IMG/VR virus record: IMGVR_UViG_2660238446_000006
Strand: one strand, 5' to 3'
Length of the DNA stretch: 4,089 bases
DNA from: a virus
Lineage: Duplodnaviria; Heunggongvirae; Uroviricota; Caudoviricetes
Each line of letters starts with the position of its first letter. The first letter of the stretch is position 1. The notes below the pieces were generated by a model, which was not told where the DNA came from, ran no database searches, and saw only the letters and a list, made by a program, of their open reading frames with translations. Made by a program: the position numbers and the translations under genes. Of this stretch, positions 1 to 4,089 are shown piece by piece.

Positions 1-386
1 GGCGTAAGGTTTACGCCCGTTTTCTGGATGCGGTGAACTTCGTCAACGGAAACAGCGACGCCGATCCGGAACAGGAGGTGATCAGCCGCTGGCGCATCGA
101 GCAGTGCAGCGAACTGAGCGCGGTCAGTGCCTCTTTTGTGCTGGCCACACCAACGGAGACGGATGGCGCGGTTTTCCCGGGGCGTATCATGCTGGCGAAT
201 ACCTGTATGTGGACTTACCGTTCTGATGAGTGTGGTTACACGGGCAGGGCAGTGGCTGACGAGTTCGACAAACCAACGACGGATATCCGGAAGGACAAAT
301 GCAGCAAGTGTATGCGCGGGTGTGAGTTGCGCAACAATACCGGTAATTTCGGCGGTTTCCTTTCCATCAATAAACTTTCTCAGTAA
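1..386 (+). CDS. L: Tail tip protein L, C-terminal part (copy A, 5' end cut by the window edge)
   Basis: Frame starting at nt 3 is open from the window edge to TAA at 384-386. Translation ...RKVYARFLDAVNFVNGNSDADPEQEVISRWRIEQCSEL...ANTCMWTYRSDECGY...DKCSKCMRGCELRNNTGNFGGFLSINKLSQ* has a C-terminal Cys cluster and an ending like lambda gpL. The track ORF 33..386 is the same frame from an internal GTG. Confidence 0.85.
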   Translation, partial: RKVYARFLDAVNFVNGNSDADPEQEVISRWRIEQCSELSAVSASFVLATPTETDGAVFPGRIMLANTCMWTYRSDECGYTGRAVADEFDKPTTDIRKDKCSKCMRGCELRNNTGNFGGFLSINKLSQ

Positions 387-390
387 ATCC

Positions 391-775
391 ATGACACAGA
401 CAGAATCAGCGATTCTGGCGCACGCCCGGCGATGTGCGCCAGCGGAGTCGTGTGGCTTCGTGGTAAGAACGCCGGAGGGAGACAGGTATCTTCCCAGCGA
501 GAATATCTCCGGTGAGCCGGAGGAACGGTTCCGGATGGCTCCGGAGGACTGGCTGCGGGCACAAATGCAGGGTGAGATTGTGGCGCTGGTCCACAGTCAT
601 CCCGGTGGTCTGCCCTGGCTGAGTGAGGCTGACCGGCGGCTGCAGGTGCAGAGTGATTTGCCGTGGTGGCTGGTCTGCCGGGGGGCGATTCACAAGTTCC
701 GCTGTGTGCCGCATCTCACCGGGCGGCGCTTTGAGCACGGGGTGACGGACTGTTACACGCTGTTCCGGGATGCTT
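391..775 (+). CDS. K: Tail tip assembly protein K, N-terminal part (copy A, cut at the n junction at 776)
   Basis: ATG at 391 lies 4 nt after the L stop. Translation MTQTESAILAHARRCAPAESCGFVVRTPEGDRYLPSENISGEPEERFRMAPEDWLRAQMQGEIVALVHSHPGGLPWLSEADRR...GVTDCYTLFRDA contains a JAMM/MPN motif (HSHPGGLPWLSEAD fits H-x-H-x7-S-x2-D) and the start of an NlpC/P60 domain. The ORF then runs into L-derived sequence after the n. Confidence 0.85.
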
Positions 776-776: not shown

Positions 777-1189
777 AGAGTCTGGTCGGCGGAACGGTGG
801 TCCGGCGTAAGGTTTACGCCCGTTTTCTGGATGCGGTGAACTTCGTCAACGGAAACAGTGACGCCGATCCGGAGCAGGAGGTGATCAGCCGCTGGCGCAT
901 CGAGCAGTGCAGCGAACTGAGCGCGGTGAGTGCCTCTTTTGTACTGTCCACGCCGACGGAAACGGACGGTGCCGTTTTTCCGGGACGTATCATGCTGGCC
1001 AACACCTGCACCTGGACCTATCGCGGTGACGAGTGCGGTTATCACGGTCCGGCGGTCGCGGATGAATATGATCAGCCGACGTCCGATATCACGAAGGATA
1101 AATGCAGCAAATGCCTGAGTGGCTGTAAGTTTCGCAATAACGTCGGCAACTTTGGCGGCTTCCTTTCCATTAACAAACTTTCGCAGTAA
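777..1189 (+). CDS. L: Tail tip protein L, C-terminal part (copy B, 5' end cut at the junction)
   Basis: In-frame codons from 779 to TAA at 1187-1189. Translation SLVGGTVVRRKVYARFLDAVNFVNGNSDADPEQ...ANTCTWTYRGDECGYHGPAVADEYDQPTSDITKDKCSKCLSGCKFRNNVGNFGGFLSINKLSQ*. It differs from copy A at about 15 of 117 aligned residues, so it is a different allele. Confidence 0.85.
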
Positions 1190-1194
1190 ATCCC

Positions 1195-1938
1195 ATGACA
1201 CAGACAGAATCAGCGATTCTGGCGCACGCCCGGCGATGTGCGCCAGCGGAGTCGTGCGGCTTCGTGGTGAGAGCGCCGGAGGGGGAAAGCTATTTTCCCT
1301 GCGTGAATATCTCCGGTGAGCCGGAGGCGTATTTCCGGATGGCTCCGGAGGACTGGCTGCAGGCAGAGATGCAGGGAGAGATTGTGGCGCTGGTCCACAG
1401 CCACCCCGGTGGTCTGCCCTGGCTGAGTGAGGCCGACCGGCGGCTGCAGGTGCAGAGTGATTTGCCGTGGTGGCTGGTCTGCCGGGGGGCGATTCACAAG
1501 TTCCGCTGTGTGCCACATCTTACCGGGCGGCGCTTTGAGCACGGGGTGACGGACTGTTACACGCTGTTCCGGGATGCTTATCATCTGGCAGGGATTGAGA
1601 TGCCGGATTTTCATCGCGGGGATGACTGGTGGCGTCACGGCCAGAATCTCTATCTTGACAATATGGAGGCAACGGGTTTTTACCGTGTCCCACTGACAGA
1701 GGCGCAGCCTGGCGACGTGCTGCTGTGCTGTTTTGGTTCATCGGTGCCGAATCATGCCGCCATTTACTGCGGTGACGGCGGGCTGCTGCACCATATTCCT
1801 GAACAACTGAGTAAACGAGAGAGGTACACCGACAAATGGCAGCGACGCACACACTCCCTCTGGCGTCACCGGGCATGGCACGCATCTGCCTTTACGGGGA
1901 TTTGCAACGATTTGGTCGCCGTATCGACCTTCGTGTGA
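1195..1938 (+). CDS. K: Tail tip assembly protein K, complete (copy B): N-terminal JAMM/MPN domain plus C-terminal NlpC/P60-type cysteine peptidase domain
   Basis: ATG at 1195 lies 5 nt after the L stop; stop TGA at 1936-1938; 247 aa. JAMM motif HSHPGGLPWLSEAD at codons 68-81 (nt 1396-1437). Candidate NlpC/P60 catalytic Cys in GVTDCYTLF (codon 121) and His in VPNHAAIYCG (codon 187). Confidence 0.9.
   Translation: MTQTESAILAHARRCAPAESCGFVVRAPEGESYFPCVNISGEPEAYFRMAPEDWLQAEMQGEIVALVHSHPGGLPWLSEADRRLQVQSDLPWWLVCRGAIHKFRCVPHLTGRRFEHGVTDCYTLFRDAYHLAGIEMPDFHRGDDWWRHGQNLYLDNMEATGFYRVPLTEAQPGDVLLCCFGSSVPNHAAIYCGDGGLLHHIPEQLSKRERYTDKWQRRTHSLWRHRAWHASAFTGICNDLVAVSTFV
1817..1824 (+). promoter_or_regulatory. 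Putative Shine-Dalgarno (GAGAGAGG) for gene I, embedded in the 3' end of K
   Basis: Purine-rich GAGAGAGG ends 11 nt upstream of the I start ATG at 1836. The same motif sits upstream of the I starts at 2749 and 3599. Spacing is somewhat long, so the call is tentative. Confidence 0.4.
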
Positions 1939-2291
1939 AAACGGGGGCTGAAGCCATCCGGGCACTGGCCACACAGCTCCCGGTGTTTCGTCAGAAACTG
2001 AATGAGGGCTGGTATCAGGTGCGCATTGCCGGGCGTGATGCAGGCGAAAATGAATTATCTGCCCGTCTTAATGAGCCGCTGGCAAATGGTGCCGTGATCC
2101 ACATCGTGCCGCGTCTGGCGGGAGCTAAAAGTGGCGGTGTGTTTCAGGTGGTGCTTGGGGCGGCGCTGATTGCGGTGGCATGGTGGAACCCTGTGGGCTG
2201 GCTGGGGGCCGCGGCTGTATCGGGCATGTATGCGGCAGGGGCCAGTATGATCCTGGGCGGAGTGGCGCAGATGCTGGCACCGAAAGCCAGG
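1836..2291 (+). CDS. I: Tail tip assembly protein I, N-terminal 152 codons (copy B, 3' end cut by the N-gap)
   Basis: ATG at 1836 is in a different frame from K and overlaps the K 3' end by 103 nt. Translation MAATHTLPLASPGMARICLYGDLQRFGRRIDLRVKTGAEAIRALATQLPVFRQKLNEGWYQVRIAGRD...GGVAQMLAPKAR matches my recollection of lambda gpI. It is interrupted by Ns at 2292. Confidence 0.85.
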
Positions 2292-2312
2292 NNNNNNNNN
2301 NNNNNNNNNNNN
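2292..2312. other. Run of 21 N: assembly gap or junction joining I mid-gene to K mid-gene
   Basis: 21 consecutive n. Upstream is I codon 152; downstream resumes inside the K JAMM motif (..HPGGLPWLSEAD). Confidence 0.95.
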
Positions 2313-2851
2313 GTCATCCCGGTGGTCTGCCCTGGCTGAGTGAGGCTGACCGGCGGCTGCAGGTGCAGAGTGATTTGCCGTGGTGGCTGGTCTGCCGGGG
2401 GGCGATTCACAAGTTCCGCTGTGTGCCGCATCTCACCGGGCGGCGCTTTGAGCACGGGGTGACGGACTGTTACACGCTGTTCCGGGATGCTTATCATCTG
2501 GCAGGGATTGAGATGCCGGATTTTCATCGCGGGGATGACTGGTGGCGTAACGGTCAGAATCTCTATCTTGACAATATGGAGGTGACGGGTTTTTACCGTG
2601 TCGCACTGACAGAGGCACAGCCGGGCGATGTGCTGCTGTGCTGTTTTGGTTCATCGGTGCCGAATCATGCCGCCATTTACTGTGGCGACGGCGAGCTGCT
2701 GCACCATATTCCTGAACAACTGAGTAAACGAGAGAGGTACACCGACAAATGGCAGCGACGCACACACTCCCTCTGGCGTCACCGGGCATGGCACGCATCT
2801 GCCTTTACGGGGATTTGCAACGATTTGGTCGCCGTATCGACCTTCGTGTGA
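2313..2851 (+). CDS. K: Tail tip assembly protein K, C-terminal part (copy C, 5' end cut by the gap)
   Basis: In-frame codons from 2315 to TGA at 2849-2851. Translation HPGGLPWLSEADRRLQVQSDLPWWLVCRGAIHKFRCVPHLTGRRFEHGVTDCYTLF...GDGELLHHIPEQLSKRERYTDKWQRRTHSLWRHRAWHASAFTGICNDLVAVSTFV*. A few substitutions relative to copy B. Confidence 0.85.
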
Positions 2852-3186
2852 AAACGGGGGCTGAAGCCATCCGGGCACTGGCCACACAGCTCCCGGTGTT
2901 TCGTCAGAAACTGAATGAGGGCTGGTATCAGGTGCGCATTGCCGGGCGTGATGCAGGTGAAACCGAATTGTCTGCCCGTCTTAATGAGCCGCTGGCAAAT
3001 GGTGCCGTGATCCACATCGTGCCGCGTCTGGCGGGAGCTAAAAGTGGCGGTGTGTTTCAGGTGGTGCTTGGGGCGGCGCTGATTGCGGTGGCATGGTGGA
3101 ACCCTGTGGGCTGGCTGGGGGCCGCGGCTGTATCGGGCATGTATGCGGCAGGGGCCAGTATGATCCTGGGCGGAGTGGCGCAGATG
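2749..3186 (+). CDS. I: Tail tip assembly protein I, N-terminal 146 codons (copy C, 3' end cut by the N-gap)
   Basis: ATG at 2749 with the same 103-nt out-of-frame overlap with K. Translation MAATHTLPLASPGMARICLYGD...GASMILGGVAQM, then Ns. Confidence 0.85.
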
Positions 3187-3207
3187 NNNNNNNNNNNNNN
3201 NNNNNNN
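3187..3207. other. Run of 21 N: assembly gap or junction joining I mid-gene to K mid-gene
   Basis: 21 consecutive n. Upstream is I codon 146; downstream resumes in K at ..LQVQSDLPWW. Confidence 0.95.
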
Positions 3208-3701
3208 TGCAGGTGCAGAGTGATTTGCCGTGGTGGCTGGTCTGCCGGGGGGCGATTCACAAGTTCCGCTGTGTGCCGCATCTCACCGGGCGGCGCTTTG
3301 AGCACGGGGTGACGGACTGTTACACGCTGTTCCGGGATGCTTATCATCTGGCAGGGATTGAGATGCCGGATTTTCATCGCGGGGATGACTGGTGGCGTAA
3401 CGGTCAGAATCTCTATCTTGACAATATGGAGGTGACGGGTTTTTACCGTGTCGCACTGACAGAGGCACAGCCGGGCGATGTGCTGCTGTGCTGTTTTGGT
3501 TCATCGGTGCCGAATCATGCCGCCATTTACTGCGGTGACGGCGGGCTGCTGCACCATATTCCTGAACAACTGAGCAAACGAGAGAGGTACACCGACAAAT
3601 GGCAGCGACGCACACACTCCCTCTGGCGTCACCGGGCATGGCGCGCATCTGCCTTTACGGGGATTTACAACGATTTGGTCGCCGCATCGACCTTCGTGTG
3701 A
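3208..3701 (+). CDS. K: Tail tip assembly protein K, C-terminal part (copy D, 5' end cut by the gap)
   Basis: In-frame codons from 3210 to TGA at 3699-3701. Translation QVQSDLPWWLVCRGAIHKFRCVPHLTGRRFEHGVTDCYTLF...VPNHAAIYCGDGGLLHH...RAWRASAFTGIYNDLVAASTFV*. Allele distinct from copies B and C. Confidence 0.85.
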
Positions 3702-4089
3702 AAACGGGGGCTGAAGCCATCCGGGCACTGGCCACACAGCTCCCGGCGTTTCGTCAGAAACTGAGTGACGGCTGGTATCAGGTGCGCATTGCCGGGCGTG
3801 ATGCAGGTGAAACCGAATTGTCTGCCCGTCTTAATGAGCCGCTGGCAAATGGTGCAGTGATCCACATAGTACCGCGTCTGGTGGGAGCTAAAAGTGGCGG
3901 TGTGTTTCAGGCGGTGCTGGGGGCGGCTGTTATGGCGGTTGCTATATGGATGCCGGGGGTAGGAATTATGGCGAGTAATCTGCTGTTTTCTCTCGGTGCC
4001 AGTATGACGCTTGGCGGTGTTGCACAGATGCTGGCACCGAAAGCCAGAACTCCCCGCACACAGACAACGGATAACGGTAAGCAGAACAC
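3599..4089 (+). CDS. I: Tail tip assembly protein I (copy D), 3' end runs off the window
   Basis: ATG at 3599, open to the window end (163 codons, no stop). Translation MAATHTLPLASPGMARICLYGDLQRFGRRIDLRVKTGAEAIRALATQLPAFRQKLSDGWYQVRIAGRDAGETELSARLNEPLANGAVIHIVPRLVGAKSGGVFQAVLGAAVMAVAIWMPGVGIMASNLLFSLGASMTLGGVAQMLAPKARTPRTQTTDNGKQN.. Absent from the ORF track because no stop codon falls inside the window. Confidence 0.85.
   Translation, partial: MAATHTLPLASPGMARICLYGDLQRFGRRIDLRVKTGAEAIRALATQLPAFRQKLSDGWYQVRIAGRDAGETELSARLNEPLANGAVIHIVPRLVGAKSGGVFQAVLGAAVMAVAIWMPGVGIMASNLLFSLGASMTLGGVAQMLAPKARTPRTQTTDNGKQN

Follow-up and report, generated by a model that had tools for sequence, protein, structure and literature searches.

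The window analysed here, a 4,089-base stretch of DNA, consists of four pieces of the lambdoid tail-tip gene run L-K-I, joined by Ns (Table 1). It is clearly a stitched draft, and the copies of K and I that it holds are partial, probably come from different prophages and are joined across the N runs; we refer to the three copies as B, C and D, after the pieces that carry them. Pfam matches in the window are Phage_tail_L, the Prok-JAB and NLPC_P60 domains of K (both found in the full copy at positions 1195–1938) and Lambda_tail_I in I. The last of these, the ubiquitin-like (Ubl) beta-grasp family PF06805, is matched over residues 14–97 and above its gathering score in copies D (E = 5.3 × 10−24) and B (E = 1.8 × 10−24). 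I begins at positions 1836, 2749 and 3599, each time 103 nt upstream of the K stop codon and in a different frame. This K/I overlap has the lowest nucleotide diversity along the region across 127 phage sequences (π = 0.008–0.03), which is consistent with double coding. The start of I is annotated inconsistently: the coding sequence in locus L001 begins 99 nt later than that in L002, and many database entries begin at M14. Within K, we observed a variable patch in the JAB domain (VVRTPEGDRYLPSENISGEPEERF...RAQMQ in piece A, positions 470–560, versus VVRAPEGESYFPCVNISGEPEAYF...QAEMQ in piece B, positions 1270–1360), and the NlpC/P60 part contains another diversity peak at I nucleotides −189 to −144 (π = 0.13–0.17).

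Table 1. Positions of the assembled pieces, genes and divergent features within the window
Feature	Position	Strand	Description
N positions	776; 2292–2312; 3187–3207		Single N at 776; 21-N runs at the other two
Piece A	1–775		L end and K start
Piece B	777–2291		L end, whole K, I codons 1–152
Piece C	2313–3186		K 3′ part, I codons 1–146
Piece D	3208–4089		K 3′ part, I codons 1–163
N run	2292–2312		Closes copy B one codon past the conserved island
N run	3187–3207		Closes copy C at ...GGVAQM
Gene K, copy D	3208–3701	+	3′ part, NlpC/P60 domain; from the open reading frame list
Gene I, copy D	3599–4089	+	Codons 1–163, runs off the window end; PF06805 Lambda_tail_I, E = 5 × 10−24, aa 14–97
K/I overlap	3599–3701; 1836–1938; 2749–2851		I and K in different frames
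Ubl beta-grasp domain of I and AKSGG	3638–3901	+	aa 14–97; di-glycine G100–G101 at 3896–3901
Divergent patch 1, copy D	3912–4024	+	Distal half of H1, WMPG turn, H2; aa 105–142; 37 substitutions and 18 gap columns
Divergent patch 1, copy B	2149–2267	+	AWWNPVGW...SGMYAAGASM type; 6 nt longer than D
Divergent patch 1, copy C	3062–3180	+	Same sequence as B; piece stops at 3186
Conserved island CAGATGCTGGCACCGAAAGCCAG	4025–4047	+	Q143–R150; matches B 2268–2290 exactly; kept across 127 sequences
Divergent patch 2	4048–4069	+	Start of the gpI plug; TPRTQTT in D, TPTAAST in external B-type alleles
Private-site runs	3278–3479; 3533–3544; 3575–3769; 3808–3820; from 3856		Private to B; C; D; B; D, in that order

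The I gene is unambiguously a member of the gpI/TAPI family, all four defining features of which are present. It shares with the TAPI family (Iyer, Burroughs and Aravind 2006, PMC1779556) the layout of a Ubl domain, a glycine-rich linker and a TAPI-C domain next to a JAB/NlpC-P60 (TAPK) gene. The Gly-rich hydrophobic segment is seen in B, C and D; L, K (JAB and NlpC/P60) and I follow one another in the window, with J next in L001 and L002; and the TAPI-C domain, which lies outside the window, is complete and near-identical to that of lambda in L001, a 99.8%-identical locus that carries the full-length counterpart of D. The L001 protein aligns end to end with the lambda gpI chain 8iyk_I (E = 2.8 × 10−109). 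Lambda gpI (PDB 8IYK, 8IYL, 8XCG and 9E7M) is the product of the same gene in the same L-K-I-J order, with a near-identical Ubl domain, AKSGG motif, hairpin ends (VFQxVLGAA... and ...GASMxLGGVAQMLAPKAR) and C-terminal strands. In an alignment of 40 homologues, the positions around AKSGG (residues 97–101) are strongly conserved, with G96, A97, K98 and G101 invariant and G100 at least 90% conserved; the JAB domain of K has been predicted to cleave at a conserved glycine of I (Iyer et al. 2006, PMC1779556). Among the homologues, three singletons (P0003, P0004 and P0051) are K-I fusion proteins that combine NlpC/P60 and Lambda_tail_I, and the Ubl domain of P0045 contains an internal duplication.

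From V102 onwards, copies B and C encode VFQVVLGAALIAVAWWNPVGWLGAAAVSGMYAAGASMILGGVAQM (46 residues, through the equivalent of L145) and copy D encodes VFQAVLGAAVMAVAIWMPGVGIMASNLLFSLGASMTLGGVAQM (44 residues), two residues fewer. Both peptides had been quoted correctly in the initial annotation of this DNA, which described an abrupt, allele-specific divergence with a two-codon difference in length, and the nucleotide comparison bears this out. Over the 704 nt of D at positions 3208–3911, D differs from C at 14 sites (98.0% identity) and from B at 25 sites (96.4% identity); over positions 3912–4024, D differs from B and C by 37 aligned differences and 18 gap columns, leaving about 61% identity (Fisher's exact test for the block against its left flank, P = 2 × 10−24). 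B and C do not differ from each other across the block. The divergence had been placed from position 3900, slightly too early, as dense divergence begins at 3912; at the DNA level it crosses the conserved GGVA codons, with three silent changes, and the first patch in D runs up to 4024. Near-identity had been described on both sides; it holds on the left (98.0% for D versus C) and is invisible within the window on the 3′ side, where the comparison with B covers only 23 nt (4025–4047) up to the N run and C has already ended (3186). Pieces B and C stop inside, or just past, the divergent block (at 2291 and 3186), a pattern to be expected if the assembly path forked between near-identical prophage repeats.

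The two alleles also differ in composition, with GC and GC3 of 0.69 and 0.75 in the B/C block, 0.57 and 0.55 in the D block, and 0.58 and 0.55 in the flanks. Should one of the two be foreign to this backbone, B/C would be the candidate, not D. Copy D is not clearly the aberrant one: the B/C sequence is in the majority only within the window, D is closer to lambda gpI in its second helix (H2) and its plug, and the compositional outlier is B/C. Besides the allelic copies, the window has no further occurrence of the block sequence. A compensated frameshift between the alleles was considered and rejected, with other frames scoring 15 versus 106 for the correct frame, as was a diversity-generating retroelement target, the spectrum being mostly G>T and T>G and not adenine-specific.

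The edges of the block were taken from pairwise difference maps of complete external alleles. When L001 (D-type) and L002 (B-type) are compared, divergence restarts past QMLAPKA, where TPRTQTT faces TPTAAST, and stops at DNGKQN, beyond which I and J are about 98% identical; near-identity is regained at I nucleotide ~472, equivalent to window position ~4070. This second patch can be compared with external B-type alleles only, and its between-class divergence (Dxy) is 0.23–0.33. Residues Q143–A146, within the island that separates the patches, are invariant in the protein alignment of 40 homologues. The cleanest swap pair, L021 (D) and L151 (B), is 98.5% identical over 1,751 nt of flank and has its dense differences confined to I nucleotides 314–471, equivalent to window positions 3912–4069. 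The module is about 158 nt long and starts four residues past the di-glycine G100–G101. The abrupt drop in identity that marks a mosaic module is seen at the left edge in the window and at both edges in the external pairs.

Both alleles are widespread outside this assembly. In complete Escherichia coli chromosomes, the best match to the I gene is 99.8% identical for copy D and 100% identical for copy B. At a coverage of at least 80%, the D block has matches in 1,184 of 5,426 complete E. coli genomes (22%) and the B block in 2,396 (44%). Among phages and other named sequences, phage mEp460 and NZ_CP025916 have the B block at 100% identity and the cdtI phage has it at 97%; mEp332 and PhiR49_1 have the D block at 95.6% identity. 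The exact peptides occur in 6 (D) and 35 (B) IMG/VR loci. Their frequency in E. coli genomes and their occurrence in isolated phages show that neither allele is a sequencing error.

A survey of homologues, represented by 120 cluster representatives, returned a few discrete types of segment. Between KSGG and QNTYF, the D-type, the S-type (IATAIWMPGLSIVASNLMFSLGAGM) and the F-type (IATAIWMPGISIAFSDILFSMGAAM) have 60 residues, the B-type 62 and the lambda-type 70. Hybrids are rare singletons (P0005 combines a D-type H1 with a lambda-type H2, and P0090 is another hybrid), as against main classes with hundreds to thousands of member sequences. Plug types pair with more than one hairpin type and are partly independent of H1-H2; the B-type H1-H2 is found with either plug. 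The variable columns in the alignment of 40 homologues are concentrated at residues ~109–132 and 149–156 rather than evenly distributed along I, and residues F103, Q104, L107, G108, G133, A134, M136 and the run from G139 to A146 (GGVAQMLA) are invariant. We also observed a tandem LSATT LSATT in the turn of P0111, the loss of four residues of H1 in P0025, and a sequence in P0093 in which the B-type second helix looks as if it had undergone a compensated frameshift.

Sequence identity to the solved lambda gpI settles the fold of this region: the block corresponds to the H1–turn–H2 hydrophobic hairpin, from the distal half of H1 onwards, together with the start of the gpI plug. In the closed lambda tail, the N-terminal domain of gpI is unresolved and H1 and H2 run from residue 101, the plug (residues 159–175) lies in the tube lumen and the beta strands thread gaps in gpJ (Ge and Wang 2024, PMC11101478). 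Another structure describes a hydrophobic stretch at residues 137–152 and a plug tripod under the C-terminal coiled coil of gpH (Xiao et al. 2023, PMC10721106), and a study of Ur-lambda found the same arrangement of gpI (PMC12617516). Lambda H1 and H2 are predicted to be transmembrane by TMHMM, and their density is lost when LamB binds (PMC11101478); their insertion into the outer membrane is a proposal (PMC11101478, PMC12617516), and we treat it as a published hypothesis rather than a demonstrated fact. The suggestion in the initial annotation that the segment might be associated with a membrane or an interface is supported by its match to lambda H1/H2 and the transmembrane prediction for these helices (PMC11101478, PMC10721106, PMC12617516). 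An AlphaFold2 monomer model of the D-type protein, of low confidence (mean pLDDT 50, and 36–45 in the block) and used for secondary structure only, has helices at residues 101–117 and 122–139 and a turn at MPGV.

The properties of the alleles can be set beside this structural picture. In all of them, the hairpin spans 44–54 residues that lack a charged residue, with a 19-residue Kyte–Doolittle mean above 1.6; the B and D segments (44–46 residues) contain no D, E, K or R and reach Kyte–Doolittle maxima of 1.70 (B) and 2.04 (D). Relative to lambda, the hairpin is 10 residues shorter in D and 8 shorter in B/C, and the turn reads WMPG in D, WWNPVGW in B and FFTAGATLAAWGAAIGAGG in lambda. The D allele has its H2 (LFSLGASM) in common with lambda, and its plug differs from that of lambda at one residue, whereas the H2 of B/C (SGMYAAGASM) is unlike lambda's. 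What all of the alleles have in common is the lack of charge, two hydrophobic helices, a turn of aromatic, Pro and Gly residues, and the ends FQxxLG... and GAxMxLGGVAQMLA. On the basis of the lambda structures, three copies of the hairpin would sit in the lumen of the tail tip of the virion, beneath the C-terminal coiled coil of the tape measure, and receptor binding would release the hairpins, which would then probably enter the outer membrane. Such a role may require hydrophobicity, helix length and conserved ends, while leaving the sequence and length of the middle free, and the conservation pattern of the alleles fits this role in the lumen or membrane.

Two earlier descriptions offer points of comparison. 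Iyer et al. (2006, PMC1779556) took this region for a linker of low complexity and described gpI as absent from the mature tail; contrary to that paper, later structures find the TAPI 'linker' to be ordered helices within the virion. The plug domain of T5 pb3 likewise closes the tail tube and is hydrophobic, and an interaction with the outer membrane once the tube opens has been proposed for it (PMC10721106). The T5 plug is an insertion within a hub protein, whereas gpI is a separate protein with a Ubl domain, and the likeness drawn here is one of description.

Several lines of evidence bear on how the block came to differ between near-identical genes. Nei–Gojobori dS is 1.04 over block codons 102–147, compared with 0.12 in the Ubl domain and 0.10 in K, and dN in the block is 0.32, giving a dN/dS of 0.31 (0.1–0.19 in the flanks). 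The codon alignment is uncertain in the turn region; a count that sidesteps this problem, that of codons for the same residue that differ between alleles, gives 11 of 26 (42%) in the block versus 8 of 96 (8%) in the Ubl domain. The roughly ninefold higher silent divergence indicates that the block is older, not merely less constrained, than its surroundings.

For a population view, we used 127 unique K-I-J′ sequences out of 160 IMG/VR loci. B-to-D Dxy in the block reaches 0.5–0.66 per column, gaps counted, compared with a within-class π of 0.01–0.03, a value that may be understated given that the loci are the best matches to two query proteins. In the flanks, between-class Dxy is about equal to within-class π across the 127 sequences. 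Fst is 0.9–0.97 in the block and at most 0.1 across K, L and the start of J; as the classes are defined by the block, its high Fst is partly circular, a concern that does not extend to the size of Dxy, to dS or to the identical flanks shared across classes. B/D pairs exist with identical flanks of 290 nt upstream (Ubl) or 821 nt downstream, whereas no B/D pair is closer than 0.25 in the block. Upstream of the block, within the window itself (positions 3208–3911 with B 1445–2148 and C 2358–3061), the three copies have 28 variable sites that fall into 5 runs, compared with 17.4 expected (P < 10−5). These clustered runs of private sites make the copies patchworks of one another upstream of the block, an arrangement suggestive of recurrent exchange, or gene conversion, among co-resident prophages.

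We conclude, with a probability of roughly 85%, that the divergence reflects two long-diverged allelic cassettes that have been swapped between near-identical K-I-J backbones by homologous recombination. The cassettes are old, with silent divergence near saturation, discrete and about 158 nt in length. Mosaic recombination between lambdoid phages had already been proposed from the letters of the window, and the raised dS, the discrete classes and the pairs with the same flanks and different blocks all argue for it. Crossovers are likely to have fallen in the conserved stretches KSGGVFQ on the left, QMLAPKA in the middle and DNGKQNTYF on the right. The block may persist as a unit because an identity of about 61% at the DNA level would leave little homology for internal crossovers. 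Perhaps H1 and H2 must also fit or pack together, an idea based on the rarity of hybrid alleles.

Other origins for the divergence were weighed against cassette exchange. If the segment were simply a low-complexity, Gly/Ala-rich linker, it could have diverged in place under relaxed constraint or local hypermutation, with slippage producing the indels and no exchange involved. The small indels and duplications in the segment (the LSATT tandem of P0111, the four-residue deletion of P0025 and the frameshift-like P0093) would fit such a history, as would a dN/dS that is higher in the block (0.31) than in its flanks (0.1–0.19). However, relaxed constraint on the protein cannot account for the increase in silent divergence, the alleles form a few discrete classes of low internal diversity (0.01–0.03) rather than a continuum, and different blocks sit on identical flanks in the B/D phage pairs; no adenine-specific pattern is seen among the substitutions, and reading one allele in another frame fails to match it to the other. 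We therefore regard divergence in place as quite improbable. An error in copy D, created during sequencing or by the assembly of a draft scaffold with collapsed prophage repeats, might be suspected in a stitched sequence with a single N at 776, two 21-N runs and pieces that end at repeat forks. The D segment is nevertheless in frame with conserved ends, the D block is 99.4% identical in complete genomes and matched in 1,184 of them, and its exact peptide recurs in the 6 IMG/VR loci, so that the chance of an artefact is practically negligible.

A different question is what maintains the alleles. Balancing or diversifying selection could do so if the hairpin and plug set compatibility with the host envelope, with injection-blocking defences or with a partner in the tail tip. 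In line with this, outer-membrane contact has been proposed for the hairpin (PMC11101478), multiple deep alleles are found at high frequency in E. coli and within single genomes, the window itself being an example, and hybrids are rare singletons next to main classes of hundreds to thousands of sequences. On the other side, between-class dN/dS (0.31) is below 1, and linkage of the block is not strong with the C terminus of gpH, with K and L or with the first ~200 residues of J. Old modules that persist neutrally are the usual state of lambdoid phage genomes, as in the mosaicism literature of Hendrix and Juhala. Selection of this kind is, in our judgement, improbable as the explanation.

The linkage analysis shows the cassette behaving as a free-standing unit. 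Coupling to the gpH C terminus is not tight (Fst ~0.1), and the commonest H C-terminal type occurs with 31 B and 14 D blocks. The H type HISIQN... was found with B only, so that a weak linkage to gpH is conceivable. Apart from a rise at the M/L junction, Fst and Dxy reveal no linkage of block class to K, L, M or the first ~660 nt of J. At that junction, ~1,310–1,370 nt upstream of the I start (L003–L162), Fst is 0.19–0.27 compared with at most 0.1 elsewhere, a rise that could be chance or weak linkage. It is conceivable, with a slim chance of being right, that the H1-H2-plug cassette acts as a second specificity determinant of lambdoid tails beside J, with alleles kept by selection for passage through the outer membrane or for evading injection blocks encoded by prophages or hosts.

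Cassette exchange in I is ordinary lambdoid mosaicism, a routine case of an already-known phenomenon, which in the work of Juhala, Hendrix and Hatfull (2000), Martinsohn (2008) and De Paepe (2014) reportedly proceeds by homologous or relaxed-homology recombination at conserved junctions. It resembles the known exchange of lambdoid modules in its sharp steps from ~98% to ~60% identity, in the presence of the same module in different backbones and in exchange between co-resident prophages. It differs from the usual lambdoid modules in that the gpI module is only ~158 nt long, is intragenic, has a 3′ side that lies off a domain boundary and is divisible into H1, H2 and plug. A literature search, of incomplete coverage, found no prior paper that maps a gpI cassette. 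Databases already contain thousands of copies of both alleles, and the result contributes a small detail, not a novel type of element.

In practice, the consequences are modest. Assembly and annotation of E. coli strains that carry several lambdoid prophages can be expected to run into contig breaks and apparent 'errors' at this place in gene I. If the alleles were to differ functionally, gpI would be a host-range factor and the swapping of cassettes would be adaptive. Structural and functional studies of gpI can draw on the natural alleles, which show that the turn between the helices tolerates differences in length of 8–10 residues or more and that the residues of the hairpin to be kept are FQxxLG, where H1 starts, and GAxMxLGGVAQMLA, where H2 ends.
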